DNA from: a virus | Lineage: Duplodnaviria > Heunggongvirae > Uroviricota > Caudoviricetes | DNA length: 64,000 bases | Strand: one strand, 5' to 3' | IMG/VR virus record: IMGVR_UViG_3300037257_000073 | In this document: positions 5,476 to 28,579 of the stretch, piece by piece | Position numbering within the stretch: the first letter of the stretch is position 1 | Layout of the letters: the number at the start of each line of letters is the position of its first letter | The notes under the pieces: model-generated | The model's database searches: none | Seen by the model: the letters and a program-made list of their open reading frames with translations, nothing else | What the model was told of the DNA's origin: nothing | Made by a program: the position numbers and the translations under genes

Positions 5476-5847
5476 CTATTTATTTGTGAATAATTTACTT
5501 ACTTGTTTACCATCATATAAACCAGCGTGATATTGTTTAAAATGTTTCATACATTCTCCAACTGAATTAAATTTATATTCATTTAGAATATCTTTAATAT
5601 CTAAATCATTTAATTGTTGTGGTAAGAATTGTTCAAGTATAACATTTTCTTCTAAGTTAGTATTACATTCAATGTTACTAGCTATCATCTTCTTAAGAAC
5701 TGAAACAACTTCCTCGTCTGTAGCAATGTAACCTGCTACTTTCTTAGGACCTTTTTCAATTCTTTCAATTTCTCCAAGAACTACTCCTAAAAGTGTTCTT
5801 GTTTCTCGGTTAGTGAGCCTATGCTCTATTATTTGCTCTTTCAGCAT
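5476..5847 (-). CDS. hypothetical protein
   Basis: ORF. Confidence 0.4.
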   Translation of the reverse strand: MLKEQIIEHRLTNRETRTLLGVVLGEIERIEKGPKKVAGYIATDEEVVSVLKKMIASNIECNTNLEENVILEQFLPQQLNDLDIKDILNEYKFNSVGECMKHFKQYHAGLYDGKQVSKLFTNK

Positions 5848-7923: not shown

Positions 7924-7929
7924 TCTAAG

Positions 7930-8003
7930 CAGCTTGTACCGGGCTCAAACCGGCGACCTCCGCCGTGACAGGGCGGCATTCTAATCAACTGAACTAACAA
8001 GCT
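7930..8003 (-). tRNA. tRNA-Asp(GTC)
   Basis: hand-folded cloverleaf; anticodon loop CTGTCAC. Confidence 0.65.
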
Positions 8004-8070
8004 ATAGTGTGGATTCCTTTTAACCCACGAAGCCAACTTAAATAAATTAAGATTTACTAGTATTTTTAAG

Positions 8071-8162
8071 TATCTAAGGTGGGGATCGAACCCACGGTGT
8101 TCACCACAAAGGGTATAAGATTTTAAGTCTTATGCGTTTCAGCCAAACTTCGCCACTTAGAC
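8071..8162 (-). tRNA. tRNA-Leu(TAA), type II
   Basis: anticodon stem ATAAGA/TCTTAT with loop CTTAAAA; long variable arm. Confidence 0.55.
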
Positions 8163-8310
8163 ATTTTACTACAGTTTATATCTGTAACAAGAACATTTAT
8201 CACAAGAAGGCATAGAAGCACATCCTGCATGTGACATACCATCTGCATCAGCAAAACAAGTCTTTTGTTTCTTTGGTTTCTTAAACCATTTAATTAATTT
8301 TTTAATCATA

Positions 8311-8664
8311 TTTTTATTAAAAAGGTAATATTATCATTAATTCTTTTCTAATTTCATAACTTAGTTTTTCAAACCAACATATAAATTCGTAATTATCTGT
8401 ATTATTAGTTAATGCAAATAATTCATGATCATAACAACATGAACCAAAACCTCTAACATATCGACCACAAACTTCAATTTGTTGACTATATATTAACTGA
8501 TGTGGTTGATCTGGATCTTGATAACCATATACACAACAAAGTCCATCGGGTTCACTTTTGTAATAACATGTCCAAAATCACCATTCTGATTGTGGTACAT
8601 CATCAAATTCTTCTTCAAGTCCAGATTCAGGATCTATATCTAAATTTACTGTTACTAATCTCAT
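8311..8664 (-). CDS. Cys-rich hypothetical protein with one in-frame TGA, paralog of 8675-8953
   Basis: 117-codon frame opens only if TGA at 8578-8580 is sense; the TGA aligns with an aromatic position of the paralog; both end in LPF. Confidence 0.45.
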
Positions 8665-8674
8665 TATTCTATTT

Positions 8675-8953
8675 TTAAAAAGGTAAATTATTTCTTATTT
8701 CATCAGGTAAGTTATTCATCCATTCTATAAATTTAGGATGATCTAAATGTTCATCAATAATAAGTAGTCCAACAGTTGCTGAACATTGTCCAGGATAACC
8801 TCTTGTTCCATTTACTTTTATCATATCACTAAAACTAAATTTATCATAGCCAATATTACCACCATAAAGACAACAACTTGCATTAGCACATTCCATAAGA
8901 CAACCTGTAAAGAAATACCATTTATACTCTGAATCTTCACCGTATTCATTCAT
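8675..8953 (-). CDS. Cys-rich hypothetical protein (paralog)
   Basis: ORF. Confidence 0.45.
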   Translation of the reverse strand: MNEYGEDSEYKWYFFTGCLMECANASCCLYGGNIGYDKFSFSDMIKVNGTRGYPGQCSATVGLLIIDEHLDHPKFIEWMNNLPDEIRNNLPF

Positions 8954-8975
8954 TATTTTATAATTTATAATTTAG

Positions 8976-9046
8976 TTGACCAACCAGGACTCGAACCTGG
9001 GCGACATCCGTCAAAGGGATGTGTGCTACCATTACACCATCGGTCA
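8976..9046 (-). tRNA. tRNA-Gln(TTG)
   Basis: cloverleaf; loop CTTTGAC. Confidence 0.65.
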
Positions 9047-9055
9047 ATATAGAAG

Positions 9056-9142
9056 CGTACACGGCAGGATTCGAACCTGCGGTGGAATATTATTCACCAG
9101 GTTAACAGCCTGGACCTGTCGACCAACTAAGGCAACGTGTAC
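9056..9142 (-). tRNA. tRNA-Asn(GTT)-like with an atypical 16-nt variable arm
   Basis: perfect acceptor GTACACG/CGTGTAC; anticodon arm CCAGG-CTGTTAA-CCTGG. Confidence 0.5.
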
Positions 9143-9143
9143 A

Positions 9144-9317
9144 TTATTCTTCTGAATGTATTTCTCTGTGACAATTAGCACAGACCATAATACATTTATC
9201 TAATTCTTCTTTAACTTTTTCTCATGCTCTAGTATATCCTTTTGCTGATATTCCAAAATCTTTTTCATTTGGATCTAAATGTTGTTTCACCATGTGTTTT
9301 ACACACTCTCATTTCAT
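9144..9317 (-). CDS. HNH endonuclease-like small protein with two in-frame TGA
   Basis: C-terminal CANCHREIH motif; frame needs TGA as sense. Confidence 0.35.
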
Positions 9318-9334
9318 CCATTTTTACTAATTTT

Positions 9335-9360
9335 TACTTGTTTACTAACCACTGAGCTAC
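9335..9360 (-). other. tRNA 5' fragment (acceptor plus D-arm only)
   Basis: GGTTCGTAGCTCAGTGGTTAG matches a tRNA 5' half; no anticodon, T-arm or 3' acceptor follows. Confidence 0.4.
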
Positions 9361-9376
9361 GAACCTTTATACCATG

Positions 9377-9742
9377 TTAAAACCAATGTTCTGTATTGGT
9401 TTCATCAATTGTACCAACTATAGAGCGACGGATTTCTCCACCTCTACGAGAATGATACACAAAAACTTTTTTATCTCGAAAGATTTGTGCTAAATGACTA
9501 AAATTATCACAATTGAAAAAATTGTGTTGATTTCCTTGAGTATCATCTAAATAAAATGATTGTCTCCTCCAACCCATTTGTCGCATTGTTTCAGGTACAA
9601 TTTCAATTACTTCTGGAATAATTGGAATAACTTCTGTATAATTACGTGTTGCTTTCACATAATCTTTTACTTTAATAAGACATAATACTTCTGAATACAA
9701 TTCACGACCATCTGAATTTCTTTTAATTGCTTTGTAATACAT
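9377..9742 (-). CDS. hypothetical protein
   Basis: ORF. Confidence 0.4.
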   Translation of the reverse strand: MYYKAIKRNSDGRELYSEVLCLIKVKDYVKATRNYTEVIPIIPEVIEIVPETMRQMGWRRQSFYLDDTQGNQHNFFNCDNFSHLAQIFRDKKVFVYHSRRGGEIRRSIVGTIDETNTEHWF

Positions 9743-9765
9743 AATTTAAAATTTAATTGTTCTTG

Positions 9766-9839
9766 TGTGACACACGGGGATCGAACCCGCAACGACCGGC
9801 ACCACAAACCAGCGCTCTACCAATTGAGCTAATGTCACC
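9766..9839 (-). tRNA. tRNA-His(GTG)
   Basis: loop TTGTGGT; an extra 5' G(-1) is encoded. Confidence 0.6.
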
Positions 9840-9846
9840 ATGTAAG

Positions 9847-9920
9847 AGCAGTAAGTGGGGTTCAAACCCACGACCCCAGGCTTGGAAGGCGAGTGCTCTG
9901 ATCAACTGAGCTATTACTGC
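9847..9920 (-). tRNA. tRNA-Gly(TCC)-like
   Basis: perfect acceptor GCAGTAA/TTACTGC, loop CTTCCAA, but the anticodon stem has two mismatches. Confidence 0.45.
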
Positions 9921-9973
9921 ATGGTACGGGTAGGATCACTGTGCACGTGCCTACCGAGACTAGATCAGTCTTC

Positions 9974-10273
9974 TTACGAAGTTTCTCCAACACTTTTATC
10001 TTTAGGATTCGACGGTTTAGTCAAATTCTTTAATTCAATTACTTCTAAAGGTTCACCTGTTCCAGGAGCTTTAAAACTCTTTACAAGTTTGGCTTCTGTT
10101 ACTATAAAACATTTACTAGAATCCCAATCAAAACCAAAATTAGTTCGAAGAATAGGTTCTGATATACGACTACCCATAGAAGGATAGTCTAAAGGAATAA
10201 CAACTTCATCATCCCAATGTTGACTATTATAAGGTAATCCTCCTAAATACTCATATAATTCTCTTACTGTCAT
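9974..10273 (-). CDS. hypothetical protein
   Basis: ORF. Confidence 0.4.
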   Translation of the reverse strand: MTVRELYEYLGGLPYNSQHWDDEVVIPLDYPSMGSRISEPILRTNFGFDWDSSKCFIVTEAKLVKSFKAPGTGEPLEVIELKNLTKPSNPKDKSVGETS

Positions 10274-10536
10274 TATTCTTTGTATTTAATGTTCATTGCC
10301 TTAGCTACTTCTATGACTTTTTCAATTTTAGCTCTTATATCAGCATCTAGAGCGTCATATTCTTCTTGTGAAAGTTTAAGAGTTGTCATATGTTCTGATA
10401 ATATATTAACTGATTGACAATACAAACATATTGAAATATCACCAGGTCCAGCTTTAGTACCATCTGTACACGCTGTATTTGCATTTAATATAGCCCCACA
10501 ATTAGGACAAATATTATCACTTTGATTTTTATCCAT
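10273..10536 (-). CDS. zinc-ribbon hypothetical protein
   Basis: CPNC...CLYC. Confidence 0.4.
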   Translation of the reverse strand: MDKNQSDNICPNCGAILNANTACTDGTKAGPGDISICLYCQSVNILSEHMTTLKLSQEEYDALDADIRAKIEKVIEVAKAMNIKYKE

Positions 10537-10538
10537 AA

Positions 10539-10919
10539 TTATAAATTAAATTTATTTAATTGTCTTACTAGTTCATAATAGTGTCTTGAATTTTTATCAG
10601 GTCTATCATTAACAATTTCTCTTGCTGTTCTAGGTTTATCAGCTTTTGTAAACCTTGAACATTCCCAATCAATAATAGCTTCTTCATAATTACAATTCGT
10701 TTTATAAAATGTAATATGATGTCTATTAATCTTACGATGTATCATTTTAATTCGATGTGTTCCTATAAAAGGAATGAATAGATACATTAACACTTTATCC
10801 AAATCATGAAACTTATACTTATAATAACCTAATAACTTCTTTTCAAGTTTTAAAAAAGCTATATAATGTTTCAATGTATATGGAATATGTTTCCAACTTT
10901 TAATAATGTTTTTAATCAT
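10539..10919 (-). CDS. hypothetical protein
   Basis: ORF trimmed to an internal Met because the annotated N-terminus overlaps tRNA-Thr. Confidence 0.4.
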   Translation of the reverse strand: MIKNIIKSWKHIPYTLKHYIAFLKLEKKLLGYYKYKFHDLDKVLMYLFIPFIGTHRIKMIHRKINRHHITFYKTNCNYEEAIIDWECSRFTKADKPRTAREIVNDRPDKNSRHYYELVRQLNKFNL

Positions 10920-10936
10920 CTCTTTATTTTTAATAG

Positions 10937-11008
10937 AGCCCAAGGTCGGGGTCAAACCGACGACAAATGGTTTACAATACCATTGCTCTATCACTGAGCT
11001 ACTCGGGC
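10937..11008 (-). tRNA. tRNA-Thr(TGT)
   Basis: anticodon arm ATGGT-ATTGTAA-ACCAT. Confidence 0.65.
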
Positions 11009-11278
11009 GTGGTGGGAGGGCTCTTTTTTAAGTAGTGCTATCCCATGTTCTACTATCGCAATTTCGGTAATGCGACCCACCAGGACATCTACTCATCGAG
11101 CAGCGTCATTTATCCAGCCCATGTTGGAAGTTGACCAAATAATAATAATATTAAAAATGTTACAAAAACAACTCCTAATGCAGCTGTTATTCTCATTTCA
11201 TTTTGTTCAGCCCATTCAGTTGCATGTCGTGGTGTTGCAAAGAACGTCCACTTTAGTTTTTTATACAGAGTCATAATT

Positions 11279-11476
11279 TTAATTTAAAATGTAAGCAATA
11301 ATTCCAAATATAGCTAATGCTAATGTTAATATTGATGTAAATCTAAGAAATACTGCAATATTATACGTTATTTTATCCTTCTCTTCTTTAACAGTAGAAA
11401 GATCTGCTAAACCTGTAATAAGTAACAATGTTCCAGGTAATGTAAGAATTGAAAGTACTAATAATAATTTATCCAT
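11279..11476 (-). CDS. small hydrophobic protein
   Basis: 65 aa, two TM-like segments. Confidence 0.3.
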   Translation of the reverse strand: MDKLLLVLSILTLPGTLLLITGLADLSTVKEEKDKITYNIAVFLRFTSILTLALAIFGIIAYILN

Positions 11477-11494
11477 TTTATTTTGTTTAGTTTG

Positions 11495-11567
11495 TCACGA
11501 TGAAGAGATTTGAACTCCTGACCCGTCCTGCATGAAAGGACTACTCTACCAACTGAGCTACATCGTG
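11495..11567 (-). tRNA. tRNA-Met(CAT) elongator type, or possibly tRNA-Ile2
   Basis: acceptor CACGATG/CATCGTG; loop TTCATGC; C1-G72 is paired. Confidence 0.6.
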
Positions 11568-11643
11568 TGAAAAGTATTATTGGTGAACGCAAGTGCCACT
11601 CCTTATTTTTATCTTGCTTATTGTCTAAAGACTAATACTTTAG

Positions 11644-11727
11644 TGGGATGTGGTGGAGTCAAACCACCCGAGTCCGAAGACACCTAAGTTACAGTCAGGC
11701 CCGCTATAAGCTACGGTATAACATCCC
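11644..11727 (-). tRNA. tRNA-Tyr(GTA), type II
   Basis: loop CTGTAAC; variable-arm hairpin GTC-TTCG-GAC. Confidence 0.6.
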
Positions 11728-11732
11728 ATTTT

Positions 11733-12677
11733 TCATACATTATGTACAATTATTTGTAAATCAGCAAATTGTGTGATTAACTTCTTATGACCATTAATAA
11801 AATCTCTAGCTGACATAACCTTTTTATTAGGTAATTGTAATGAAACAATCTGAAGACTACTTTTATTACAATTTATAAAAAGTTTATTATTTTCAACACA
11901 AATTAATTCTCCATCTAAGAAATCACCTTTAACACGTCCAGTATACATACATGCATCTTTAATTTTAACTTCAGTATTGTTATCTGGTAAATAAAAGAAT
12001 ACTCCGTGATTCGATTCATATGCCTTCATTTTTGCATATACATCATCAACATTTTTATTAAAATCAAGTAAACAATCATCTTTAGTTATTTTACAACAAT
12101 ATGTAGCTTCACTTTCTATCTGTGGTCTTAAAATAACTCCACGAGTATATTTAGTGATTGTTAGAAGAATATTTTCAGCAGCTAAGTTTGATAATTGATC
12201 AAGAAGCATAATATATCCCATTCCTACAGGTAGATACATTTTACGTTGAGTAATAATACTTCCAGCATCTACAGCAGCATTCATTTTAATAAATGTAACT
12301 CCTGTTTCAGAATCTCTATTCAAAATAGCAGCTTGAATACAAGAAGCACCTCTATACTTCGGTAATAATGAACCATGAATATTAATTGCACCATATTTAG
12401 CAGAATCAAGTATTTTCATTTTAATTATTTGTCCATAAGATGCAACAACAATTAAATCAAAATCAGTACTAATTATACGATGTTCAAGTTCATTAATATC
12501 ATTAGCAGTATATACTAAACAACCTAAAGCTTTACCAGCAATATAAATAGGTGTATTTTGTACTACTCTACCGAAACGTCGTGGTGGTGTTGTTATAACT
12601 GTAACTTGATAAATTTCATGTAATTTTTTTAATGCTGGAACTCCAAAAATTCCATTACCAATAAATAATATCTTCAT
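11733..12677 (-). CDS. fmt: methionyl-tRNA formyltransferase
   Basis: N-terminal MKILFIGNG..FGVP and the formyltransferase signature NIHGSLLPKYRGASCIQ; 314 aa with a C-terminal domain; the ORF ends on TGA. Confidence 0.8.
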   Translation of the reverse strand: MKILFIGNGIFGVPALKKLHEIYQVTVITTPPRRFGRVVQNTPIYIAGKALGCLVYTANDINELEHRIISTDFDLIVVASYGQIIKMKILDSAKYGAINIHGSLLPKYRGASCIQAAILNRDSETGVTFIKMNAAVDAGSIITQRKMYLPVGMGYIMLLDQLSNLAAENILLTITKYTRGVILRPQIESEATYCCKITKDDCLLDFNKNVDDVYAKMKAYESNHGVFFYLPDNNTEVKIKDACMYTGRVKGDFLDGELICVENNKLFINCNKSSLQIVSLQLPNKKVMSARDFINGHKKLITQFADLQIIVHNV

Positions 12678-12696
12678 CTGTTTATGTTTTAATTTG

Positions 12697-12782
12697 CGGA
12701 AATGTAGGATTCCAACTCCTATTCGCCTAAACGAACGCTTTGCTTAGCAGGCAAGCCTTACTTCTCGTAAGTTACTATTTCC
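12697..12782 (-). tRNA. tRNA-Ser(GCT)-like, type II
   Basis: loop CTGCTAA; long variable arm; atypical D-arm. Confidence 0.5.
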
Positions 12783-12795
12783 AGTTTAATTATTG

Positions 12796-12885
12796 TGGAA
12801 GAAGTGGGATTCCGACCCACGCACCGCTTTTACACGATCTAACGATTTTCAAGACCGTCCTCTTAAAGCACTTGAGTACTCTTCC
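12796..12885 (-). tRNA. tRNA-Ser(TGA), type II
   Basis: anticodon arm ACGGT-CTTGAAA-ATCGT; 3-bp D-stem; long variable arm. Confidence 0.6.
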
Positions 12886-12892
12886 ATTTAAT

Positions 12893-13093
12893 TTATTGAT
12901 TTGATTTTAAATAATTCTCATAAATAAGTTTAGATTCTTCTGTAAGAAAATTCTTATTAATCGGTTTGTGATTTAGATTAAAAGGAAATAATTTACCACA
13001 TTCGGTACACCAACTAATTCCCCAATTATTAATTCTAGGAACACATCCTAATTTTACACATTTAGCTGCCATCTTAATTGTTATTTTCGTCAA
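12893..13093 (-). CDS. zinc-ribbon hypothetical protein
   Basis: CVKLGC...CTEC. Confidence 0.35.
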   Translation of the reverse strand: MTKITIKMAAKCVKLGCVPRINNWGISWCTECGKLFPFNLNHKPINKNFLTEESKLIYENYLKSNQ

Positions 13094-13508
13094 ATATTCC
13101 TTTTAAATACCAATAATCTTCACATTTTTTAGAATATGATTTACATTCATTTTCAATATGTCTCCAATTCTTTCTTACAAAAGAAGTTTCTTCATATTTA
13201 AAATAAGTTTTACCATCTATATAACTCTCGGGTTGTAAAAATCTAAATCCTTCAACTTCTATTTCTTTACGTTCAAAATTATATTTAGGTTTATCAGGAA
13301 AAATCGGAGGAGTTATAATCTGATTCCAACTTTTAGCTGAATGTTCTTTACGTCGACCATATTGAAAAGTGTAAGGATTATAATAATTCTTACTATTCCA
13401 TCGTTTGTCATATCTTTCACATACTGAAAGTTGAATCATTGCAGTTTTATGAACATTAGGGCCATTTAATTTAACTCCTATTCTTTTTAAATAATCTAAA
13501 CATTTCAT
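13074..13508 (-). CDS. hypothetical protein
   Basis: ORF. Confidence 0.4.
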   Translation of the reverse strand: MKCLDYLKRIGVKLNGPNVHKTAMIQLSVCERYDKRWNSKNYYNPYTFQYGRRKEHSAKSWNQIITPPIFPDKPKYNFERKEIEVEGFRFLQPESYIDGKTYFKYEETSFVRKNWRHIENECKSYSKKCEDYWYLKGIFDENNN

Positions 13509-13528
13509 TTTATCTATTTTTATATTTG

Positions 13529-13611
13529 TACTCGAGGTCGGACTCGAACCGACACATCTTTCGACATATGCTCCTAAGGCATACGCGTATTAACCATTTC
13601 GCCACTCAAGC
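13529..13611 (-). tRNA. tRNA-Leu(TAG), type II
   Basis: anticodon arm TATGC-CTTAGGA-GCATA. Confidence 0.6.
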
Positions 13612-13616
13612 ATTTG

Positions 13617-13697
13617 CACATCAGGTAGGATTTGAACCCACGAACCTTTCGGATTAGTTTTGGAGACTAACTACTTTAACCGCTTGTATACTGACAT
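13617..13697 (-). tRNA. tRNA-Trp(CCA)
   Basis: anticodon arm TTAGT-CTCCAAA-ACTAA. Confidence 0.55.
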
Positions 13698-13703
13698 ATT
13701 TGC

Positions 13704-13782
13704 TCCCCCAAGGAGGACTCGAACCCACATGTCTCTCGACATATTCCGAAGAATACGCGTCTGCCAATTACGCCATTGGGGA
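13704..13782 (-). other. aberrant tRNA-like element without a decodable anticodon loop
   Basis: good acceptor, D-arm and T-arm, but the anticodon region is two tetraloop hairpins (CGTATTC-TTCG-GAATATG and ATGTC-GAGA-GACAT). Confidence 0.4.
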
Positions 13783-13788
13783 ATTTAG

Positions 13789-13877
13789 TGGGGGCGGAGG
13801 GCTTCGAACCCCCATGTCTCACGACCGCTATGGTCTAACCTATATTTAGCTGCGGCTACCAATTTCGCCACACCCCC
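13789..13877 (-). other. aberrant type-II tRNA-like element (anticodon loop ATATAGG)
   Basis: acceptor GGGGGTG/CGCCCCC, Leu-like D-arm, 4-bp anticodon stem CTAA/TTAG, ~20-nt variable arm. Confidence 0.4.
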
Positions 13878-13893
13878 GATTGTTTTTTTTTTG

Positions 13894-13966
13894 TGATCTG
13901 ACTGGGATTTGAACCCAGAACCCCCGCCTTAAAAGGGCGATGCTCTACCAGTTGAGCTATCAGATC
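13894..13966 (-). tRNA. tRNA-Lys(TTT)
   Basis: perfect acceptor GATCTGA/TCAGATC; loop CTTTTAA. Confidence 0.7.
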
Positions 13967-13975
13967 TTGTAAATA

Positions 13976-14040
13976 ACCACTTGGTTGTAGCGACACTACC
14001 AAGTGGTTTGTTGCCGAAACAACAACGGTCCTAAACCGTA
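13976..14040 (-). ncRNA. three consecutive hairpins in the tRNA-Phe/tRNA-Lys spacer
   Basis: ACCACTTGGT/ACCAAGTGGT (10 bp), TTGTTG/CAACAA (6 bp), ACGGT/ACCGT (5 bp). Confidence 0.35.
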
Positions 14041-14042
14041 AG

Positions 14043-14115
14043 TGGACTCTGTTGGTTTTGATCCAACCTCTCATGCTCTTCAGGCATACGCTTTCACCAG
14101 ATTAGCTTAGAGTCC
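14043..14115 (-). tRNA. tRNA-Phe(GAA)
   Basis: acceptor GGACTCT/AGAGTCC; loop CTGAAGA. Confidence 0.65.
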
Positions 14116-14120
14116 TTAAA

Positions 14121-14900
14121 TTATATTTTATCCCATTCATCATCAGACAAACTATTTATTTCTTTCTTTGAAGAAGGTATATTAAAATGTTTACACCATT
14201 TTCTAATAGCATTATCTGATCTATTGTATAATTTACCAATATTAATAAATGTTTCTGTGCGAACTAAAGTTTTTAAATATTCACGAGTTATACCAAGTTC
14301 ATCGTAAAAATCATTAGCTATTCGTTTAGCAGAACAACTTAAACATAAACCACTTACAGAAGAACTTGTTATAGTATTACCACAAGAATTACAATATAAT
14401 GCATCTATAACTTTATCTTTAACATTTTTACCTTTATAATTATCAGTAAAAGCATGACAGTTTGGACATAATAATTTAAGATTATTTAATTCATTATTAG
14501 TTTTAATACCATCTATGTGGTGTGTTTCTAATGGAATAGGTTCTCCCATTCATTTAGTATTATCACAACATTCACATTTATGTTCTTTTAGATTATTTTT
14601 TAATAATTTATCTCTTAACTTACTTGTTTGTGTATATGCTGAATCTTTACAAAAGATTGTATCTAAAGTGTACACATTCTTAGTTTCATTTGAAGAATTT
14701 CTTTTAAAATGAATTGTGCTAATTTGATGTTTTTTTATCTTAGTTTGAATTGTTTCATAATTACCAGCAGTTAAAGGCAACCCATAATATCTACACACAT
14801 CTGCAAAAGAATAACTTTCTTTTACAATTTTTTCTAAATTTTCTTTTGAATATTTGTTTTCCATAAATTGAACTATTATATTAATAGTACAAAGATACAA
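14121..14900 (-). CDS. HNH homing endonuclease with one in-frame TGA at 14550-14552
   Basis: two adjacent same-frame ORFs; CxxC sits upstream of the TGA and HHIDG..N..LCPNCH downstream, so the HNH motif spans the TGA. Confidence 0.6.
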
Positions 14901-14970
14901 AAAATTTTCGAAAGTGCAAAATATATTTAGTTAAATATTGTTAATAGCAGAAAGAAACCACCGAAGTGGT

Positions 14971-15507
14971 TTATTCAAATAATCCTGAAGGTGTATTATG
15001 AAATTTATTATATAAAACATCTAATGTATAGGATTCATTATCTTTATTAACAAATAATAATTCTTCATCAATTATTGTCGGAGTGTAATTCTCCTTTAAT
15101 ACTTGTAAAAATGATTTAGTTCTTGTTACTGTGCCCCCAAATCTTGGATCATCTCCATAATTAATGATATAAGTTCCTGACGATGGTGTCATACTAGCAA
15201 GAACATCATTATGAACATATTCTGATCTACCATCATGAGTTATTGTTTGACTAAATTCTTCAAGTAAACCTCTAATCATATCATTACTGATATTAAATTC
15301 ATTAGCTCCTGATATTTTATATTTATCCTCATCATTCATAGATTGACTACTCATAGTAATTGTTTGAACTTTTCCAAACAATCTACGCATGCTTTCAACA
15401 ACTCCAAAAAGAGGTCTTGGACCTCGTCCATTTAATGCATCTTCAAACCATTCTAAAGACTGCATTAATACTTTATCACCTACTTTATATCGCTCTGTAC
15501 CTCTCAT
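14971..15507 (-). CDS. tandem paralog family A, member 1
   Basis: N-terminal YKVGDKVLMQSLEWF; C-terminal NYTP..ID..YTLDVLYNKF. Confidence 0.5.
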   Translation of the reverse strand: MRGTERYKVGDKVLMQSLEWFEDALNGRGPRPLFGVVESMRRLFGKVQTITMSSQSMNDEDKYKISGANEFNISNDMIRGLLEEFSQTITHDGRSEYVHNDVLASMTPSSGTYIINYGDDPRFGGTVTRTKSFLQVLKENYTPTIIDEELLFVNKDNESYTLDVLYNKFHNTPSGLFE

Positions 15508-15862
15508 ATATTTCTTTTAAACTATATGCATCATTATTATCATTTATAAAATACAATCCACCTTCATCAATAAGTGGTGTATAATTCTTTTCTACATATT
15601 CAGGAAAAGATGAAGCTATTCCTTCAATCATATCATTACTAAAATTCCAATGACGTGGATCATCTACTAAGTGATATAAAGGTATATATGCATAACCTGC
15701 TTCATTATTTGAAATTACTTGTTCTTTACCAAAAAACTGACGCATATCATAAATTAATCCACCTTCAACAGCTACATGATTTTCCATCATTTCATCAAAC
15801 CAAGCTAATGATTTTAGTCTAACAACATCACCAATTTTATACTTCTTTAAAGAACTCATCAA
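15485..15862 (-). CDS. tandem paralog family A, member 2
   Basis: YKIGDVVRLKSLAWF ... YSLKEIYERY. Confidence 0.5.
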   Translation of the reverse strand: MMSSLKKYKIGDVVRLKSLAWFDEMMENHVAVEGGLIYDMRQFFGKEQVISNNEAGYAYIPLYHLVDDPRHWNFSNDMIEGIASSFPEYVEKNYTPLIDEGGLYFINDNNDAYSLKEIYERYRAI

Positions 15863-16295
15863 ATATTTCTTTTAAAGTAAATGAATTATTATCTTTATCA
15901 GTAAATGTTAAAGTTTCACCATCAAGAAATGGAGTATAATTCTTTTCAAGATGTTCAGGAAATTTATTTGGAGTAATAACATCCCATGAATATTGATCAG
16001 GATCAATTATATTTTCATGTCTATGTATTAATTCAGAAGTTTTTATATTATCAATCATTTGATCAGTATACGTATATTCATTATCACTACCACCACTGCA
16101 ACCTGCTAAAACATATCCACAATAATTTGTATCAACATGAGTAATAACTTGAATTGTTCCAAAATAAGGTCTCATATCACTAGCTAAACCTAATCTAACA
16201 TCACCTCTATCGTCATGTACATCAAACCAATCTTTAGATTTCAAATGTACACATTGTCCTACTTTATACTTAACTGTTGGTAGTGAATCTCTCAT
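15837..16295 (-). CDS. tandem paralog family A, member 3
   Basis: YKVGQCVHLKSKDWF ... FTLKEIFDEF. Confidence 0.5.
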   Translation of the reverse strand: MRDSLPTVKYKVGQCVHLKSKDWFDVHDDRGDVRLGLASDMRPYFGTIQVITHVDTNYCGYVLAGCSGGSDNEYTYTDQMIDNIKTSELIHRHENIIDPDQYSWDVITPNKFPEHLEKNYTPFLDGETLTFTDKDNNSFTLKEIFDEFFKEV

Positions 16296-16839
16296 ATAAC
16301 TGTGTTAAAGTAAATGAATTATTTTCATTATCTGTATAAGTTACAACTCCATCATAAGCAAATGGAACAAACTTCTCAACATATTGTATAAATGCTTTAA
16401 CGTGAATTGAAAGACTGTTTGAAAAACCTAATAATCCACTAAAATCAGTAGTACCTCTCATTCTACCTCTCAATTCTTGTAATGAAAGTTGTTCATACAT
16501 ACTTAAAGCACTTGACATACTTGAAGTACCTGAAGTTAAACTAGATCCTATGGTATTATACATACTTACTAATCTATCATATCCATTAGTTGTAATTGGC
16601 ATATCATAATACTTATCAACCATATCTATTGAGAAATACCAACCTTTAGAATCACTTTCAATATTAAATAATTCAACACCTCTTAATTGAGATCCTCCAA
16701 TTTTTACAGATTTTATAATATGTTCTTTACCAAAATATTGTTCCATATCATTAGTCAATATTGGCAAGAAATCTGCTTTTTTCTCATCATACCATTCTTT
16801 AGGTTTTAATAAAACCTTCATTCCTTGTTTTAAAATCAT
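16270..16839 (-). CDS. tandem paralog family A, member 4
   Basis: MKVLLKPKEWY ... FTLTQLYERF. Confidence 0.5.
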   Translation of the reverse strand: MILKQGMKVLLKPKEWYDEKKADFLPILTNDMEQYFGKEHIIKSVKIGGSQLRGVELFNIESDSKGWYFSIDMVDKYYDMPITTNGYDRLVSMYNTIGSSLTSGTSSMSSALSMYEQLSLQELRGRMRGTTDFSGLLGFSNSLSIHVKAFIQYVEKFVPFAYDGVVTYTDNENNSFTLTQLYERFTTNS

Positions 16840-16892
16840 TTTCCATCTTCATTTAACTTGGGTAATCATCCCAATTTTACCTAATTTATTTG

Positions 16893-16964
16893 TAAGAGCA
16901 GAGAGAATTGAACTCCCGACATCTTCCATGTAAGGGAAGCGTTCCACCACTGAACTATGCTCTC
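16893..16964 (-). tRNA. tRNA-Val(TAC)
   Basis: anticodon arm CTTCC-CTTACAT-GGAAG. Confidence 0.65.
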
Positions 16965-17022
16965 GGTTGTATTGTAGACAGTACTATCTTGTAGAACCAA
17001 TACTAATTTTATATCTACTTTG

Positions 17023-17096
17023 TGTTCACAACAGGACTTGAACCTGTGACCCCCAACTTATCAGGCTGGTGCTCTAACCAACTGAGCTACGCAAAC
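17023..17096 (-). tRNA. tRNA-Ile(GAT)
   Basis: loop CTGATAA. Confidence 0.6.
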
Positions 17097-17188
17097 AGTT
17101 AAACAGTAACTATTCTTAGACTTTCGACATCCTTAATAGCTTTCCAATGATAACTAATTGCTGTTTACCAATTAGCTTCTTCGAAGAG

Positions 17189-17262
17189 TGGAATCTGTGG
17201 GTTTCGAACCCACCACCTATTGCTTGCAAAGCAATCGCTCTAGCCAAATGAGCTAAGACCCC
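17189..17262 (-). tRNA. tRNA-Ala(TGC)
   Basis: anticodon arm ATTGC-TTTGCAA-GCAAT; G3:U70 wobble present. Confidence 0.65.
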
Positions 17263-17427
17263 GATTTAAAGTTTTTTGTGCCACGGTGATTGTATGCCAA
17301 ACTGGTAAAAACTTAATAATACCCATGCGCCAAATACGATGCGCGAGACAAGTATGCATAAACTATCAAACTTTCGTTATTAAGTTCCTAGGCCTTCTCA
17401 ATCTACGTTCAGTTGTTCCTACTGGTT

Positions 17428-17643
17428 TTATTTAATTATTTCAAGTTCTTCTGGAGAATAACCATATCTTAATTTAGAAGGTAACCATCTAACATTCCAT
17501 TCATCACCTTCACCATCAGGATATACTAAATCTTCAACTATACCTATACACTTTCCAAATTCATCAACATGATCTTTACAATCATTTGCAATTAATCCTC
17601 TTTTAAAGGATTTAGTCATTTTAACTATATCTCCTGATTTCAT
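17428..17643 (-). CDS. hypothetical protein
   Basis: ORF trimmed to avoid tRNA-Cys. Confidence 0.3.
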   Translation of the reverse strand: MKSGDIVKMTKSFKRGLIANDCKDHVDEFGKCIGIVEDLVYPDGEGDEWNVRWLPSKLRYGYSPEELEIIK

Positions 17644-17659
17644 AATTTTATTTATTTTG

Positions 17660-17731
17660 AGCCCATACCAAGATTCGAACTTGGGCGTGCGATTTTTGCA
17701 GAATCGAATGTTAACCACTTCACCATACGGG
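17660..17731 (-). tRNA. tRNA-Cys(GCA)
   Basis: anticodon arm CGATT-CTGCAAA-AATCG. Confidence 0.65.
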
Positions 17732-17732
17732 C

Positions 17733-18212
17733 TTATCTATTATTAATAATATTACTAATGGTTCCTTTACTACTAATATTATATTTTTCCATAATTTCTT
17801 TATAAGTATGCCCTAAATTTCGGTATGCTTTAATTTCTAAAACTAATTCATCAGAATATTTTTTATTAGCATTAGATGCAATTCTAATTCTTTCTTCTTT
17901 AGGTTTATCCATCATATTATCACTATATGATCCAATTTCAATATTATCCCAAGAATTATTTAATCCGTTACCATCTAAATGTCTAACTACTATATCTTCG
18001 TTAAAAATAATTTCTCCAAATTTTTGATATGCTTGTAATCTATGTACTTTAACTGGAATATGTTTTTCATTTAATCTAATATTAAATTTTTTATAATTTT
18101 TATTATAAATAGTTCCTGTTAAAATTTTTTCTTTAGGATTTAAAATATCACCATTTATAGTTATTTTATATCCTTTTTCAATTGCTAATAATTCATTTTT
18201 ACTTCTTTCCAT
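17733..18212 (-). CDS. HNH homing endonuclease with a C-terminal HTH
   Basis: VRHLDGNGLNNSWDNIEIGS plus C-terminal ...YKEIMEKYNISSKGTISNI; start moved to an internal Met to avoid the tRNA-like element. Confidence 0.6.
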   Translation of the reverse strand: MERSKNELLAIEKGYKITINGDILNPKEKILTGTIYNKNYKKFNIRLNEKHIPVKVHRLQAYQKFGEIIFNEDIVVRHLDGNGLNNSWDNIEIGSYSDNMMDKPKEERIRIASNANKKYSDELVLEIKAYRNLGHTYKEIMEKYNISSKGTISNIINNR

Positions 18213-18216
18213 ATTG

Positions 18217-18293
18217 TACCTACTCCTGGGATTGAACCAGGCTGTCACCAAATAACCTTTCAACAAGATATAAGCTTGAGGGTATAAGTAGGC
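18217..18293 (-). other. degenerate tRNA-like element
   Basis: perfect T-arm CCTGG-TTCAATC-CCAGG and acceptor GCCTACT/AGTAGGT, but no canonical D or anticodon arm. Confidence 0.35.
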
Positions 18294-19265
18294 ATAAAAA
18301 ATCTCTTTATTCACTTTAAGCAGAGTGGAATAATTATATTGACTTAGGTCATAACGAAGGCTTTTCTGCGAACACTAACCATATCATAACTACATTTACC
18401 AAAACATTCAACCACTGCTATGGTTTATAACCTACGTACTCAACTTTCGTCCTTACCCCTTATTGGGTTGGGTGTCTCCCCCTGGTTACCGTTTTGCTTC
18501 AATTAAAGAGATTTTATTTGTTCAACTTAGAGTAGTCACGGCTACCTCTGATCTCTAAGTCTAATACTAACAGTGGCAAAATGTAGCTCGACCCTAGTTA
18601 GTTTTGTTAATTGGTATGGGCAATAACTTTATAAGTTAAGACTACAACCCCATCTTTGATGGTTTATTCTATCGTAGCTAATAATAAATAAACCTAGTTG
18701 TACTCCAAGCTGGACTTGAACCAGCGACCCTCGGTTTAGAAAACCGATGCTCTATCCACTGAGCTACTGGAGCATTTTAAAAATGAGTAACGGGAGGGAC
18801 AATTACACGCATGTTATCCACGGGACTACACCTACATCTTTTCGTTAGGGATATCTGGACTTAATTCCTCATTCTAAGTCAGCATTGGGTTCCCCTCTTA
18901 CCTGACTCACCGACCATTCTCGGATGTTACTCATTTAATTTTTAAAAATATTGATGTGCTATTACGCCAAAGGGATTTCAGTCCTTACCAGTTACGGGGT
19001 GACCTCCAACTTACCTTACCACATTAAATTCCAACTTGAATTGGTTTATCAACGTAGTCTCGTCCCACTCTTTAGATGATTGCTGCTTCCAAGCCAACAT
19101 TTCAATATTTTATATTTTAAAAAAGATATACTAATTGCGATTGTATATTATAGAAACATCATCGACGATAATAAATTACCATTCTAGATATAACATTCAC
19201 CAATACTTTAAATACGGAGGAATTCCAGAGTCACTTCCCTCATATACAATTAGAGCCCTCTGGAC
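18294..19265 (-). ncRNA. large ORF-free, GC-enriched structured region, candidate GOLLD/ROOL-like RNA, with tRNA-Arg embedded
   Basis: ~950 nt with no ORF over 60 aa on either strand in a densely coding genome; many local inverted repeats; embedded tRNA. Confidence 0.35.
18701..18773 (-). tRNA. tRNA-Arg(TCT)
   Basis: anticodon arm TCGGT-TTTCTAA-ACCGA. Confidence 0.65.
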
Positions 19266-19481
19266 CTAGACTGTTTCTTCTTTTAATTTTTTATTCCATT
19301 TTAAAAATCCTCTAATATTTAAAACTGTAAATGCTAAATACATTATAACTATTGAAATCATATTCCAGAATAATATTATTCCAAGAATACTTCCAATTGC
19401 TCCAAGTATGAAGCCAATTATTCTCTTATTACTTATCAAATAATAAGCGTATAAGTTTAAAATCATTAAAATCCAATCCAT
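19266..19481 (-). CDS. small membrane protein
   Basis: two TM segments. Confidence 0.35.
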   Translation of the reverse strand: MDWILMILNLYAYYLISNKRIIGFILGAIGSILGIILFWNMISIVIMYLAFTVLNIRGFLKWNKKLKEETV

Positions 19482-19684
19482 TATCTATTTGTTTAAGTTT
19501 TAAAAAGGGTTGGGTATATAGTAGAACTTTAATCAACTTATACGTTTATGAATTACACATAATTGCTATCTACCACCCTTTATTTTAACATCCCTCTCTG
19601 CCGCAATCAAGTTTCGGCTGTCTTGTGCTTTGTTTGAACCATTATCAATTGCCGATTTATGGTCACAGAGTTGAGGATATTTAG

Positions 19685-19757
19685 TTGCGAAGGAGGGAAT
19701 TGAACCCCCGACCTCAAGGTTATGAGCCTTGCGAGCTACCACTGCTACCACTTCGCG
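19685..19757 (-). tRNA. initiator-type tRNA-fMet(CAT)
   Basis: C1:A72 mismatch; loop CTCATAA; architecture close to E. coli tRNA-fMet (CGCGAAG..CTCATAACC..TTCAATT..CTTCGCA-A). Confidence 0.55.
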
Positions 19758-19767
19758 ATATATTTTG

Positions 19768-19840
19768 TATAGATGGTGAGACTCGAACTCACGACCCCTT
19801 GCTCCCAAAGCAAGAACGCTACCAACTGCGCCACATCTAT
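19768..19840 (-). tRNA. tRNA-Pro(TGG)
   Basis: perfect acceptor ATAGATG/CATCTAT; loop TTTGGGA. Confidence 0.65.
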
Positions 19841-19843
19841 ATT

Positions 19844-20062
19844 TTAATTATTGAATATTTCACAAATTAATTCTTCAGAAATCCATTCTTCAATTACATC
19901 TTTACTATCATTTTCAGTAATAAAAAATATTTCATGATCTTCTATAGCATCTTTTAAATATCTTGAAACTTTATTAAGATCTGATATGCTTGAAGACTTA
20001 AAAATAAGTCTTGGTGTTTCACGATTACTTATTCTAAGTAAATAATATTTTTTTTCTATCAT
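19844..20062 (-). CDS. hypothetical protein
   Basis: ORF. Confidence 0.35.
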   Translation of the reverse strand: MIEKKYYLLRISNRETPRLIFKSSSISDLNKVSRYLKDAIEDHEIFFITENDSKDVIEEWISEELICEIFNN

Positions 20063-20083
20063 AATTAATTTATCAATATTTTG

Positions 20084-20155
20084 TATTCGGACGGGGAATC
20101 GAACCCCGCTTGCTGGGATGAAAACCCAGATTACTAGCCGCTATAAGACCCGAAC
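20084..20155 (-). tRNA. tRNA-Glu(TTC)
   Basis: anticodon arm CTGGG-TTTTCAT-CCCAG. Confidence 0.6.
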
Positions 20156-21917: not shown

Positions 21918-22325
21918 TTAATGAATTGTTTGTAATATACTCACACAATCAGCAGCTTCTTTTAAACCAAAACGTGATATTTCTTTAAGAATCTTTACAG
22001 CTGCAAGTTTAGAACCAGCATCAAATTCTGTTATTATTCTATCAAGTTCTTTATTATCAACACTATAACCAAAATCAGTATTGACTTTTGTGATTTCTTT
22101 TCTTAATGCAGAACGTTTTGTAATACGTAAAGATAATACAGCATCAAGACCTGCGTCAACTTCAGGTTCTGTGTTATTAGCATTATTAGCTTCAGTTAAA
22201 TCCAATGGAATTCCTGCAGCCATACCTTTAAGTAATGTGATTAATGCGGAATTAAATCCAACATCCTTATCATTCTTAGGATTCGTAATCAACGCTCCTA
22301 TTATATATTTCTCAATATCAGTCAT
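21918..22325 (-). CDS. protein with a ribosomal bL12 (L7/L12) C-terminal domain-like region
   Basis: C-terminal ...TEFDAGSKLAAVKILKEISRFGLKEAADCV resembles the bL12 CTD (..[21 protein letters not shown]). Confidence 0.35.
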   Translation of the reverse strand: MTDIEKYIIGALITNPKNDKDVGFNSALITLLKGMAAGIPLDLTEANNANNTEPEVDAGLDAVLSLRITKRSALRKEITKVNTDFGYSVDNKELDRIITEFDAGSKLAAVKILKEISRFGLKEAADCVSILQTIH

Positions 22326-22329
22326 TATT

Positions 22330-22830
22330 CTATTCTTTAGGGAATTCTAGTTCTTGTTGAACTTTTTTTGGTGGAACTTTATAGTTCATTGGCATCATTG
22401 TTATAATACCATTTCTTACATACATCTCAGCACAACGATTATCATCATCAAATGCCATAAGAATGTCATACTCTTCTTGAAGCTTCTTTAAAGTAGCTTC
22501 TTTCGATAAATATGATTTAGTATAGTCTATACCTTGTTTCATGAATAATTTATATTCATCATCATACAGAAGTCCTCCGTCTTCTAGTTTTTCAATTAAC
22601 CATGCTTCGGTTTGAGGTCTTACTCGTTCAGGTCTCCCTGTAACAAGTAAAATCATATATCCTTGCATAGCTAGTGATTGCATTAGTTCACCAACACTTT
22701 TAATAAGCACGTCACCTGATAAATCACTCCAATCAAAAGGACTTCTGTTAGTATGATACAAAGTAGTAAGATCTAAATCAAAGATTACTGCTTTTTCTTT
22801 TTCCATAAGTTTTTTAAACTTGGTTTCCAT
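22330..22830 (-). CDS. HAD-superfamily phosphatase
   Basis: VIFDLDLTT ... LLVTGRPE ... AFDDDN. Confidence 0.5.
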   Translation of the reverse strand: METKFKKLMEKEKAVIFDLDLTTLYHTNRSPFDWSDLSGDVLIKSVGELMQSLAMQGYMILLVTGRPERVRPQTEAWLIEKLEDGGLLYDDEYKLFMKQGIDYTKSYLSKEATLKKLQEEYDILMAFDDDNRCAEMYVRNGIITMMPMNYKVPPKKVQQELEFPKE

Positions 22831-24492: not shown

Positions 24493-24939
24493 TTATTTAA
24501 ATTTATTTTTAAATTCTTCAATACTATTGTATAAAGGAATATTATATTTAGAACATACAATTTCTATATTACCTTTTCTCCAAAATCCTTCAGGACAAAT
24601 TACATGTAACTTTTTAGAAGTTGCATATAAACCTAATTCTAATAAACTAATTGGAGACATAGTTTTAGGATCAAAATACATAATAATTATATCAGAAAAA
24701 TCTAATGCGTGTAATTCCCAAGAAACTTGTTGAAAAAATTCAGGATTATCAAAAGATTGAACCCAAGAACTATCCCAATTATCTCTACGAGGATTAAATA
24801 TATTAAAATCTTTTTCAAAATATTTTGTCATAGTATCTTGCCAATTTTCAGCTTGACCCATTTCAATACTACCTGCTAAAAACATAGAAGGTTTATGTAT
24901 ATCTCGTTGATTTATATTATTTGGAGCTTTAATTACCAT
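24493..24939 (-). CDS. nucleoside 2-deoxyribosyltransferase-like protein
   Basis: SMFLAGSIEMG..W motif and size. Confidence 0.4.
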   Translation of the reverse strand: MVIKAPNNINQRDIHKPSMFLAGSIEMGQAENWQDTMTKYFEKDFNIFNPRRDNWDSSWVQSFDNPEFFQQVSWELHALDFSDIIIMYFDPKTMSPISLLELGLYATSKKLHVICPEGFWRKGNIEIVCSKYNIPLYNSIEEFKNKFK

Positions 24940-28157: not shown

Positions 28158-28172
28158 TTAATTTCAATTTAA

Positions 28173-28579
<407 letters not shown>

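Follow-up and report, generated by a model that had tools for sequence, protein, structure and literature searches.

The region from 7929 to 20155 of a 64,000-nucleotide stretch of viral DNA (IMG/VR record IMGVR_UViG_3300037257_000073, Caudoviricetes; the whole stretch is referred to below as the window) raises the question of what an initiator-type tRNA and a methionyl-tRNA formyltransferase (Fmt) are doing together in the tRNA array of a phage. An earlier note on this DNA had labeled the region a translation-takeover module, composed of about 23 tRNAs, an initiator tRNA with fmt, a transfer-messenger RNA (tmRNA) and a bL12-like protein. The reading favored here, with a probability of roughly 60%, is that the region is the translation-support module of a jumbo phage of a Bacteroidota host, in which phage decoding tRNAs, initiator tRNA, Fmt and tmRNA would supplement host translation. 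The label of takeover was not upheld. Nothing that would inhibit or replace host components was found in the window or in the approximately 10 kb past its left edge, and because nothing in the window attacks host translation, support describes the module better than takeover; its content reads as supplementation or insurance. The loci fetched for the analysis, cited by L number where they must be told apart, span about 5,700-58,700 of the window plus approximately 10 kb beyond its left edge; a look-up with the ORF at the right edge (62531-63325) gave no record.

The initiator-type tRNA and the Fmt homolog

The tRNA-Met(CAU) gene at 19684-19757 (minus strand; ARAGORN, Rfam 53.2 bits) specifies a C1xA72 mismatch followed by G2:C71, C3:G70 and G4:C69, a discriminator A73 and the anticodon loop CUCAUAA. 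At G2:C71, C3:G70 and A73, the determinants for Fmt, the sequence is identical to that of E. coli tRNA-fMet. When compared with 5,426 E. coli genomes, the gene gave a median of four matching loci per genome at 77% identity, and the one E. coli matching locus that was inspected was a cluster of three tRNA-Met genes between mltA and amiC. This cluster is metZWV, which holds initiator genes, and E. coli has four initiator genes. As judged from its sequence, the gene at 19684-19757 is initiator-type and not elongator-type. The C1xA72 mismatch and the E. coli matches in the three-tRNA-Met cluster thus agree with the earlier proposal of an initiator tRNA, and the alternative that it would prove to be an elongator did not hold. 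A second tRNA(CAU), at 11494-11567 (minus strand; ARAGORN, Rfam 61.2 bits), was considered elongator-type because its 1:72 position is paired (C1:G72). This tRNA has an unusual G37 and C38, and could be assigned neither to Met nor to Ile2, there being no informative E. coli match and G37/C38 suiting neither.

The fmt gene is located at 11733-12677 (minus strand) and encodes a protein of 314 aa, identified by Pfam, TIGR00460, the PDB and alignments. Matches were obtained to Formyl_trans_N (84.1 bits, residues 1-147) and Formyl_trans_C (64.3 bits, residues 196-297), and the best NCBIfam model was TIGR00460 fmt (175.4 bits), which covered residues 1-303 of the 314. The six best matches in the PDB were all Fmt (3tqq, E 1.9e-39), followed by ArnA at 9e-20. 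The catalytic residues N99, H101 and D137 and the segment S103-G110 were invariant across 16 sequences (the ORF and 15 relatives), with the motif HGSLLPKYRG. The Fmt-type insertion loop is present in a form two residues shorter, in which G36-R37 aligned with the GR of the Coxiella Fmt loop; the Arg of this loop is substituted in some members of the clade. Arg42 of the E. coli enzyme is the basic residue of the insertion loop that reads the initiator acceptor end. The ORF is an intact, full-length Fmt homolog and is predicted to formylate Met-tRNAfMet. The earlier description of the gene as a full-length fmt was therefore sound, given the two Pfam domains and the end-to-end match to TIGR00460, and the possibility that catalytic residues were missing fell away with the retention of the Asn, His and Asp.

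The identical Fmt protein is indexed in 38 blocks of the collection of contigs (23 contigs were read), several ENA and JGI samples among them. Diverged relatives with 67% and 44% identity were found on short contigs, each inside a tRNA array, and in this clade fmt always sits inside the array. Across these lineages, with identities as low as 44%, the ORF is unbroken and the catalytic motif does not vary. Cellular Fmts were at most 40% identical to the phage protein, the nearest (35-40%) being from Patescibacteria.

Fmt was also sought elsewhere. PHROGs contained no Fmt family, only a PurN-type family matching the N-terminal domain alone, and two pattern scans of IMG/VR, which were narrow and are weak evidence on their own, found no relatives. 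Fmt was likewise found in none (0/119; 1.13 Mb) of the flanks of IMG/VR loci with an initiator-type anticodon arm. Scanning of JGI metagenomes with the phage-clade Fmt alignment yielded only cellular Fmts, at identities of at most 36%; the sole tRNA-rich JGI locus (L034) looks bacterial and is priA-def-fmt-like by ORF sizes and order. A tblastn search of INPHARED with the Fmt protein matched 40 records, many of which, judged by names and annotation, look like mislabeled bacterial contigs or unannotated metagenomic fragments. Formylation is the step that commits methionyl-tRNA to initiation, and no description of a phage-encoded Fmt was found in the literature searched; the string "formyl" had no match in the main text of PMC7162821. 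Fmt is a rare and unusual component for a phage, while the other parts of the module were already known. The earlier note had called it unusual for a phage to carry a formyltransferase and an initiator tRNA together; this stands as far as Fmt is concerned, but initiator-like tRNA-Met genes are common in phages, with 104 phage records and at least 119 IMG/VR contigs containing them.

Decoding capacity, tmRNA and proposed function

ARAGORN predicted 24 tRNA-type genes in 7929-20155, every one on the minus strand. The Rfam model RF00005 (gathering score 29 bits) supported 18 of the 24 with default filters and 21 with permissive filters; Tyr(GUA) at 22.9 bits and a gene labeled "(tc)" at 28.2 bits fell below the gathering score, and a gene labeled "(ata)" was undetected. 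The array is credibly described as 21-22 decoding tRNAs and two aberrant tRNA-like genes, so that the earlier figure of about 23 tRNAs between 7930 and 20155 was right in count and coordinates but included two members that are not credible decoders. Most amino acids had been said to be covered, and in fact all 20 are represented, with one anticodon per amino acid plus two Leu tRNAs and two CAU tRNAs. Each four-codon box is served by U34 and the NNY boxes by G34. Among 88 ORFs (14,813 codons), 84% of third codon positions were A or T, and the tRNA set, compared with these codons, is matched to the A/U-ending codons of the phage. Under the assumption that U34 reads whole boxes, the set would cover 94-96% of codons, leaving unread CGN (263), AGY (263) and perhaps AUA (334) of the 14,813. 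The relative L007 additionally has Ser(GCU). None of the 24 genes encodes CCA, each ending N73-C followed by A/T-rich sequence, and a CCA-adding enzyme is therefore required.

The tmRNA gene lies outside the array at 28171-28579 (ARAGORN 28173-28579; minus strand). It matched RF00023 at 107.3 bits (gathering score 47) over model positions 1-374 of 374, a full-length match that bears out the earlier identification. The acceptor is GGGGGUG.../...CACCUCC with G3:U70, and the resume codon is GGA. The tag reads GNKTISFARTAFMAAA and is followed by the double stop TAA TAG; ARAGORN reported "Tag not identified." No relatives of the tmRNA were found in phage records except a 34-nt match to the T arm.

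The proposed function is as follows. Transcription of its own decoding tRNAs during infection would keep the AT-rich genes of the phage translatable even if the host tRNA supply drops. Host methionyl-tRNA synthetase (MetRS) would charge the phage initiator tRNA, and phage Fmt would transfer the formyl group from 10-formyl-tetrahydrofolate onto the charged initiator. Kept fully formylated in this way, the enlarged initiator pool would reach IF2 and the P site instead of being lost to EF-Tu. The tmRNA, which host SmpB could serve, would free ribosomes stalled on broken messages. Fast formylation in E. coli is described as keeping initiator tRNA exclusive to initiation and out of elongation (PMC6393288). 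The role of phage Fmt is most likely to keep the phage-expanded initiator pool formylated. A small clade of jumbo phages with fmt in the array would be a natural test of how far formylation capacity limits initiation when the initiator pool is enlarged, a question that has so far been studied in engineered E. coli strains (PMC6393288). The host group is of interest here because Bacteroidota initiate without Shine-Dalgarno pairing.

The identity of the phage and its host was examined in the window as a whole. The window has a G+C content of approximately 30%, and nearly all genes are on the minus strand. A 718-aa protein encoded at 43174-45330 matched phrog_1735 in the PHROG search (702.6 bits); it shares 59-63% identity with proteins of two Cellulophaga phages, phi17:2 and phi4:1, and with one from a 462-kb uncultured phage. 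Other PHROG matches in the window were to NAMPT, glutathionylspermidine synthase and AAA ATPases. Contigs with the genes of the window fell in the 0.2-1 Mb bin, and one was 213,486 bp. By these matches and contig sizes the element is a jumbo phage, the contigs carrying its genes being larger than 200 kb. There was no sign of a recoded genetic code or of suppressor tRNAs; the window is densely filled with ORFs when read under code 11, and the 88 ORFs end in TAA (67), TGA (11) or TAG (10).

In the 25 nt upstream of the 88 ORFs, Shine-Dalgarno motifs were absent (AGGAG preceded 1 of the 88 genes), and adenine was at a maximum at -13, -12, -6 and -3 (0.60-0.62). Upstream adenines at the same positions are measured positive determinants of initiation in Flavobacterium johnsoniae (PMC6847099). 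Because the pattern matches these initiation signals, it offers a clue to a Bacteroidota host that is free of homology, and the host is probably a member of the Bacteroidota. Identification of the host through the anticodon stem of the initiator tRNA was dropped, since this stem is spread over many phyla.

Individual tRNA genes, tRNA-like genes and neighbors of the array

The remaining genes of the array were all called by ARAGORN on the minus strand (Rfam scores in brackets). From its right-hand end, these are tRNA-Glu(UUC) at 20083-20155 (45.2 bits) and tRNA-Pro(UGG) at 19767-19840 (65.6 bits) and, beyond the initiator gene, tRNA-Arg(UCU) at 18700-18773 (69.1 bits), tRNA-Cys(GCA) at 17659-17732 (53 bits), tRNA-Ala(UGC) at 17188-17262 (62.9 bits), tRNA-Ile(GAU) at 17022-17096 (65.8 bits), tRNA-Val(UAC) at 16892-16964 (65.3 bits), tRNA-Phe(GAA) at 14042-14115 (54.2 bits) and tRNA-Lys(UUU) at 13893-13966 (72.4 bits). 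The two aberrant genes are followed by tRNA-Trp(CCA) at 13616-13697 (43.5 bits), tRNA-Leu(UAG) at 13528-13611 (52.4 bits) and tRNA-Ser(UGA) at 12795-12885 (43.1 bits). The type II tRNA-Tyr(GUA) at 11643-11727 (22.9 bits) is 6 nt downstream of fmt and has orthologs in L007 and L008. Beyond the second tRNA(CAU) are tRNA-Thr(UGU) at 10936-11008 (60 bits), tRNA-Gly(UCC) at 9846-9920 (59 bits), tRNA-His(GUG) at 9765-9838 (54.5 bits), tRNA-Asn(GUU) at 9055-9142 (39.4 bits), tRNA-Gln(UUG) at 8975-9046 (61.6 bits), tRNA-Leu(UAA) at 8070-8162 (53.4 bits) and tRNA-Asp(GUC) at 7929-8003 (58.3 bits). Tandem paralogous small ORFs of two families were also observed, with four copies at 14971-16839 (minus strand) in the tRNA array and five copies at 26302-28157 (minus strand) directly upstream of the tmRNA.

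The aberrant gene at 13702-13783 (minus strand; ARAGORN "?(tc)", Rfam 28.2 bits) is paralogous to tRNA-Leu(UAG) but has its seven-base anticodon loop exchanged for a UUCG tetraloop closed by C:G. Because this C(UUCG)G tetraloop replaces the anticodon loop, the gene has no anticodon. Its ortholog, L007:563-642, has an identical anticodon arm, although the L007 Fmt is only 67% identical to that of the window; in the T stem, three pairs differ between the two with pairing kept or improved, indicating compensatory change. No UUCG tRNA-like gene was found when sought in IMG/VR. The gene offers a specific candidate for a tRNA function other than decoding.

The second aberrant gene, at 13788-13877 (minus strand), is a type II, Leu-type tRNA-like gene that ARAGORN labeled "Tyr(ata)" and in which Rfam detected no match; the ortholog at L007:464-557 was labeled "Ile(aat)." It showed 73-78% similarity to tRNA-Leu genes from a Pseudomonas phage and from Klebsiella phages that are T5-like. 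Indels separate its anticodon arm from that of the L007 ortholog and, because the arm is not conserved, the gene is probably not a decoder.

Long variable arms, which are normally confined to Leu, Ser and Tyr tRNAs, were seen in tRNA-Asn(GUU) (9055-9142, minus strand) and, to an unusual length, in tRNA-Trp(CCA) (13616-13697, minus strand). A long-arm Asn(GUU) is also present in Cellulophaga phage phi4:1 (L013:7453-7541), where it is annotated "tRNA-Pseudo." Outside the array, a further tRNA-like gene at 42702-42787 (minus strand; Rfam 47.5 bits) was missed by ARAGORN with default settings; its anticodon loop is 18 nt long, its acceptor stem starts with a U1.U72 mismatch, and a forced 11-nt intron gives "Leu(caa)" without U33.

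The ORF at 21918-22325 (minus strand) had been credited with a bL12-like C-terminal segment. Literally the likeness is there, but it is weak, and the protein is not a ribosomal one. Its match to Pfam Ribosomal_L12 reached only 21 bits (gathering score 25.9) over model positions 4-35 of 67, and that to TIGR00855 18.2 bits against a cut-off of 84.4. The C-terminus has the alpha4-alpha5 hairpin motif of the bL12 C-terminal domain (CTD) (KLAAVKILKEISRFGLKEAADCV). An exhaustive search recovered a family of proteins of approximately 100-146 aa that contain the C-terminal motif KLxAVKxLKExxGxGLKEAKDxID and end just past it; the family has an N-terminal motif of its own, LIxxLIxxPxNDKEIGFNSALIxxLK, and the N-terminal domain of bL12 was unmatched. 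When the family profile was run against the PDB, bL12 came first (top 15 chains, E 2e-5 to 0.003), over 28-42 residues only. Members matched phrog_26927 and phrog_5819, both of unknown function, and tblastn of the protein against phages gave no match. An AlphaFold2 model (22 sequences, pLDDT 77.9) was all-helical, and Foldseek of this model against the PDB gave no match at E below 1. Identification as a bL12 homolog was rejected in view of the partial, sub-threshold CTD match, the missing N-terminal domain and the lack of a fold match; on profile and model, 21918-22325 is a small all-helical phage protein carrying a bL12 motif. The practical value of such results is modest and lies in better annotation of phage "L7/L12" matches, which here reflect only a motif, and of aberrant tRNA calls.

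A stand-alone HAD_PNKP phosphatase of the polynucleotide kinase-phosphatase type (22330-22830, minus strand; Pfam PF25109, 69.6 bits; PHROG "polynucleotide kinase" families) is encoded directly upstream of the L12-motif gene. The phage contig L095 has the same order as the window: the PNKP-type phosphatase and the L12-motif gene (L095:9571-10366) precede several small ORFs, after which a tRNA array begins. At L096:9423-11628 the L12-motif gene is flanked by an NMNAT-like gene on one side and an RNA ligase gene on the other. A YqeY/GatB-like domain protein is encoded 2 kb past the array at 5476-5847 (minus strand; Pfam YqeY, 35.8 bits, gathering score 27; phrog_1460 "tRNA amidotransferase," 71.7 bits) and is possibly a further translation- or tRNA-related gene. 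All three proteins, the one with the L12 motif, the PNKP-type phosphatase and the YqeY-like one, travel with the tRNA array.

Other features of the window and its flank were noted in passing. A NAD-salvage pair, NAMPT and a fused NMNAT-like/Nudix gene, and a nucleoside 2-deoxyribosyltransferase-like gene between the two occupy 23062-24492, 24493-24939 and 25403-26302 (all minus strand); NAD reconstitution by phages is a known anti-defense function. Approximately 3-6.4 kb past the left edge of the window, L217:13625-17092 encodes a radical SAM protein, an RNase H, a ClpP-family protease and a ferritin-like protein, and a phage ClpP-family protease near a phage tmRNA is possibly worth a look. 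RAGATH-1 hammerhead ribozymes at 56979-57047 (67.6 bits) and 59461-59538 (59.4 bits) and a Pistol ribozyme at 37769-37830 (41.6 bits), all on the minus strand, scored above their Rfam gathering scores. The Band_7 gene at 30901-31461 (minus strand) is an ORF of 186 aa in the window and 291 aa in the near-identical L011:14452-15327, which points to a frameshift, to variation between strains or to a different start.

Alternative explanations and known systems

Several observations weigh against reading the region as a translation-support module. The anticodon stem of the initiator-type tRNA (A29:U41/G30:C40/G31:C39) has only two of the three canonical G:C pairs at 29-31:39-41, and its D stem (G10:C25, the initiator-type A11:U24, G12:C23, C13:G22) forms only with one U bulged between 10 and 11, the ARAGORN register giving a poor D stem. 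At least 120 stretches of bacterial genomes and at least 119 of viral DNA have the AU/GC/GC anticodon stem, as does the Cellulophaga phage initiator, and because the stem is this common it is considered a natural variant; the D-arm sequence is common to several viral initiator-type tRNAs. The TIGR00460 score of 175.4 bits is below the curated equivalog cut-off of 201.5. By crude NG86 estimates, dN/dS was 0.32 in the catalytic core of Fmt and 0.77-0.80 outside it (window versus L007), and the comparison with L010 gave 1.59 for columns 135-200 and 0.37 from column 200 to the end. Because dN/dS is high outside the core, constraint on the tRNA-binding half looks relaxed, and this half appears to be evolving fast. 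SmpB, peptide deformylase, an initiation factor and aminoacyl-tRNA synthetases were not among the precomputed Pfam matches of the fetched loci or found in scans of selected ORFs. In Cellulophaga phage phi4:1, fmt is not annotated in the 12-kb stretch around the tRNA array, and the Cellulophaga phages were absent among the Fmt tblastn matches listed (34 of 40). Since phi4:1 has a similar array and initiator and no fmt in that stretch, Fmt is not required for this lifestyle. The host assignment, finally, is an indirect one.

The alternative that survives best is counter-defense, which is possible but doubtful. By this explanation the tRNAs replace those cut by abortive-infection nucleases, and the initiator and Fmt shield initiation from toxins that cleave initiator tRNA (VapC-type) or N-acetylate Met-tRNAfMet (AtaT-type). 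A Met-tRNAfMet formylated without delay would be closed to acetylation, the tRNA-like genes that lack an anticodon would serve as decoys, and RNA repair would involve the PNKP-type phosphatase. A published hypothesis has phage tRNAs counteracting VapC, PrrC and colicins, and enteric VapC cuts tRNA-fMet (PMC10264068). The unusual anticodon loop of the second tRNA(CAU), with G37/C38, and the conservation of two non-decoding tRNA-like genes would fit such a role, as would a HAD_PNKP gene conserved beside the array, an L12-motif gene near an RNA ligase gene in another phage and the NAD-salvage pair alongside. On the other side, the initiator anticodon loop is the canonical CUCAUAA and shows no escape mutation, no host nuclease or toxin could be matched to the module, as no host genome is available, and the role of Fmt against acetylating toxins is a putative one. 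Counter-defense is in any case compatible with supplementation; it would change the selective reason for the module and not its biochemistry.

A narrower form of this idea, and a rather unlikely one, is that an own initiator tRNA and Fmt would provide a self-contained initiation supply against host defenses or shut-off (VapC-type cleavage, N-acetylation or loss of host Fmt), with the Leu-type tRNA-like genes serving as decoys or non-ribosomal acceptors. If true, initiator formylation would be a new battleground between phage and bacterium.

Less probable still, Fmt and the odd tRNA-like genes might be passengers, shuffled by homing endonucleases into a recombination hot-spot, neutral or decaying, and with no integration into the translation of the phage. 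ORFs for HNH, GIY-YIG and PDDEXK endonucleases are indeed dotted through the tRNA arrays of the window and its relatives; within the array of the window are an HNH_3 homing-endonuclease-like ORF at 17733-18314 (minus strand; Pfam HNH_3, 32.4 bits) and a weakly matching HNH endonuclease-like ORF at 14121-14549 (minus strand; Pfam HNH, 20.4 bits, gathering score 21.4). The block of the ata gene, the tc gene and tRNA-Trp is present in L007 and absent in L009 despite the identical Fmt protein that these two encode, and the high dN/dS outside the catalytic core would also be expected of passengers. Neutrality or decay is difficult to reconcile with an ORF that stays intact, and a catalytic motif that stays invariant, down to 44% identity, with the dN/dS of 0.32 in the core, with the recurrence of the identical protein in 38 blocks from several ENA and JGI samples, and with the compensatory changes in the T stem of the tc gene.

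That the Fmt-like protein formylates another substrate, such as an amino-sugar nucleotide in the manner of ArnA and the sugar N-formyltransferases, and is among tRNA genes by accident, is very unlikely. The sub-threshold TIGR00460 score, the lower NCBIfam matches to ArnA (103 bits) and PRK06988 (93 bits) and the fast evolution of the C-terminal half would be consistent with such a change of substrate. Fmt was the best match by a wide margin in both NCBIfam and the PDB, however, with 20 orders of magnitude in E-value over ArnA; the alignment to Fmt runs end to end and includes the insertion loop with its Gly-Arg, the gene is inside a tRNA array in three of three diverged relatives, and sugar-nucleotide genes were not found nearby.

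A cellular origin, as a piece of a small AT-rich genome such as that of a CPR bacterium or symbiont, in which Fmt, tmRNA and a complete tRNA complement would be no surprise, is improbable in the extreme: the nearest cellular Fmts are those of Patescibacteria (35-40% identity) and no capsid or terminase gene lies within the window, but PHROG and phage matches are strong, ribosomal proteins, rRNA and housekeeping operons are absent from the 64 kb and its flanks, fmt is outside the bacterial priA-def-fmt-rsmB type of context that L034 appears to have, homing endonucleases lie inside the tRNA array, and families are known for only a minority of the ORFs.

The translation-support reading places the module beside several known systems. 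The huge phages of Al-Shayeb et al. 2020 (PMC7162821) also have many tRNAs, tmRNA and L7/L12-annotated proteins, and their translation genes were already proposed to intercept or sustain host translation. The list given in the main text of that paper comprises IF1, IF3, S1, S21, L7/L12, EF-G/Tu/Ts, peptide deformylase, release factors and SmpB, whereas the protein component of the present phage is Fmt, with no initiation or elongation factors in the window.

The closest cultured relatives, by the DUF8224 protein (50-59% identity), are the Cellulophaga phages phi4:1 and phi17:2 (Lightbulbvirus). The array of phi4:1 has 23 tRNA genes, one per amino acid, with two tRNA(CAU) and the long-arm tRNA-Asn(GUU), and its initiator is of the A1xC72 type with the AU/GC/GC stem. 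A near-complete tRNA array with an initiator is a trait of the lineage. These phages have genomes of 145 kb and no sequence similar to the tmRNA of the window; the only tmRNA call by ARAGORN in the 12-kb stretch of phi4:1, a "tmRNA*," was an overlapping prediction and was judged spurious.

T4-type tRNA clusters contain tRNA-like stable RNAs of unknown role and are associated with Pnkp/Rnl tRNA repair; T4 has 8 tRNAs, less than a full set, and is not known to carry Fmt or a tmRNA. Both systems link a tRNA cluster to a PNKP-type enzyme, but in the present phage only the phosphatase domain is found, and there is no ligase in the window. With ribosomal protein bL12 the L12-motif family shares helices alpha4-alpha5 of the CTD, which match over 28-42 residues; this part of bL12 contacts translational GTPases. 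Unlike bL12, the L12-motif protein has no bL12 N-terminal domain; it stops at about the middle of the CTD model, and its predicted structure is all-helical.

Bacterial Fmt (E. coli 1FMT/2FMT and Coxiella 3TQQ) and the phage protein have in common the two domains, the N-x-H...D and HxSLLPxxRG motifs and the Gly-Arg loop; the phage gene differs in being placed in a tRNA array and not beside def, and in a loop two residues shorter. The nearest functional parallel in a phage is the cyanophage peptide deformylase (Frank et al. 2013, cited in PMC7162821), likewise a phage enzyme of the N-formyl-methionine cycle and thought to sustain translation during infection. The deformylase removes the formyl group after translation, whereas phage Fmt would act before initiation.

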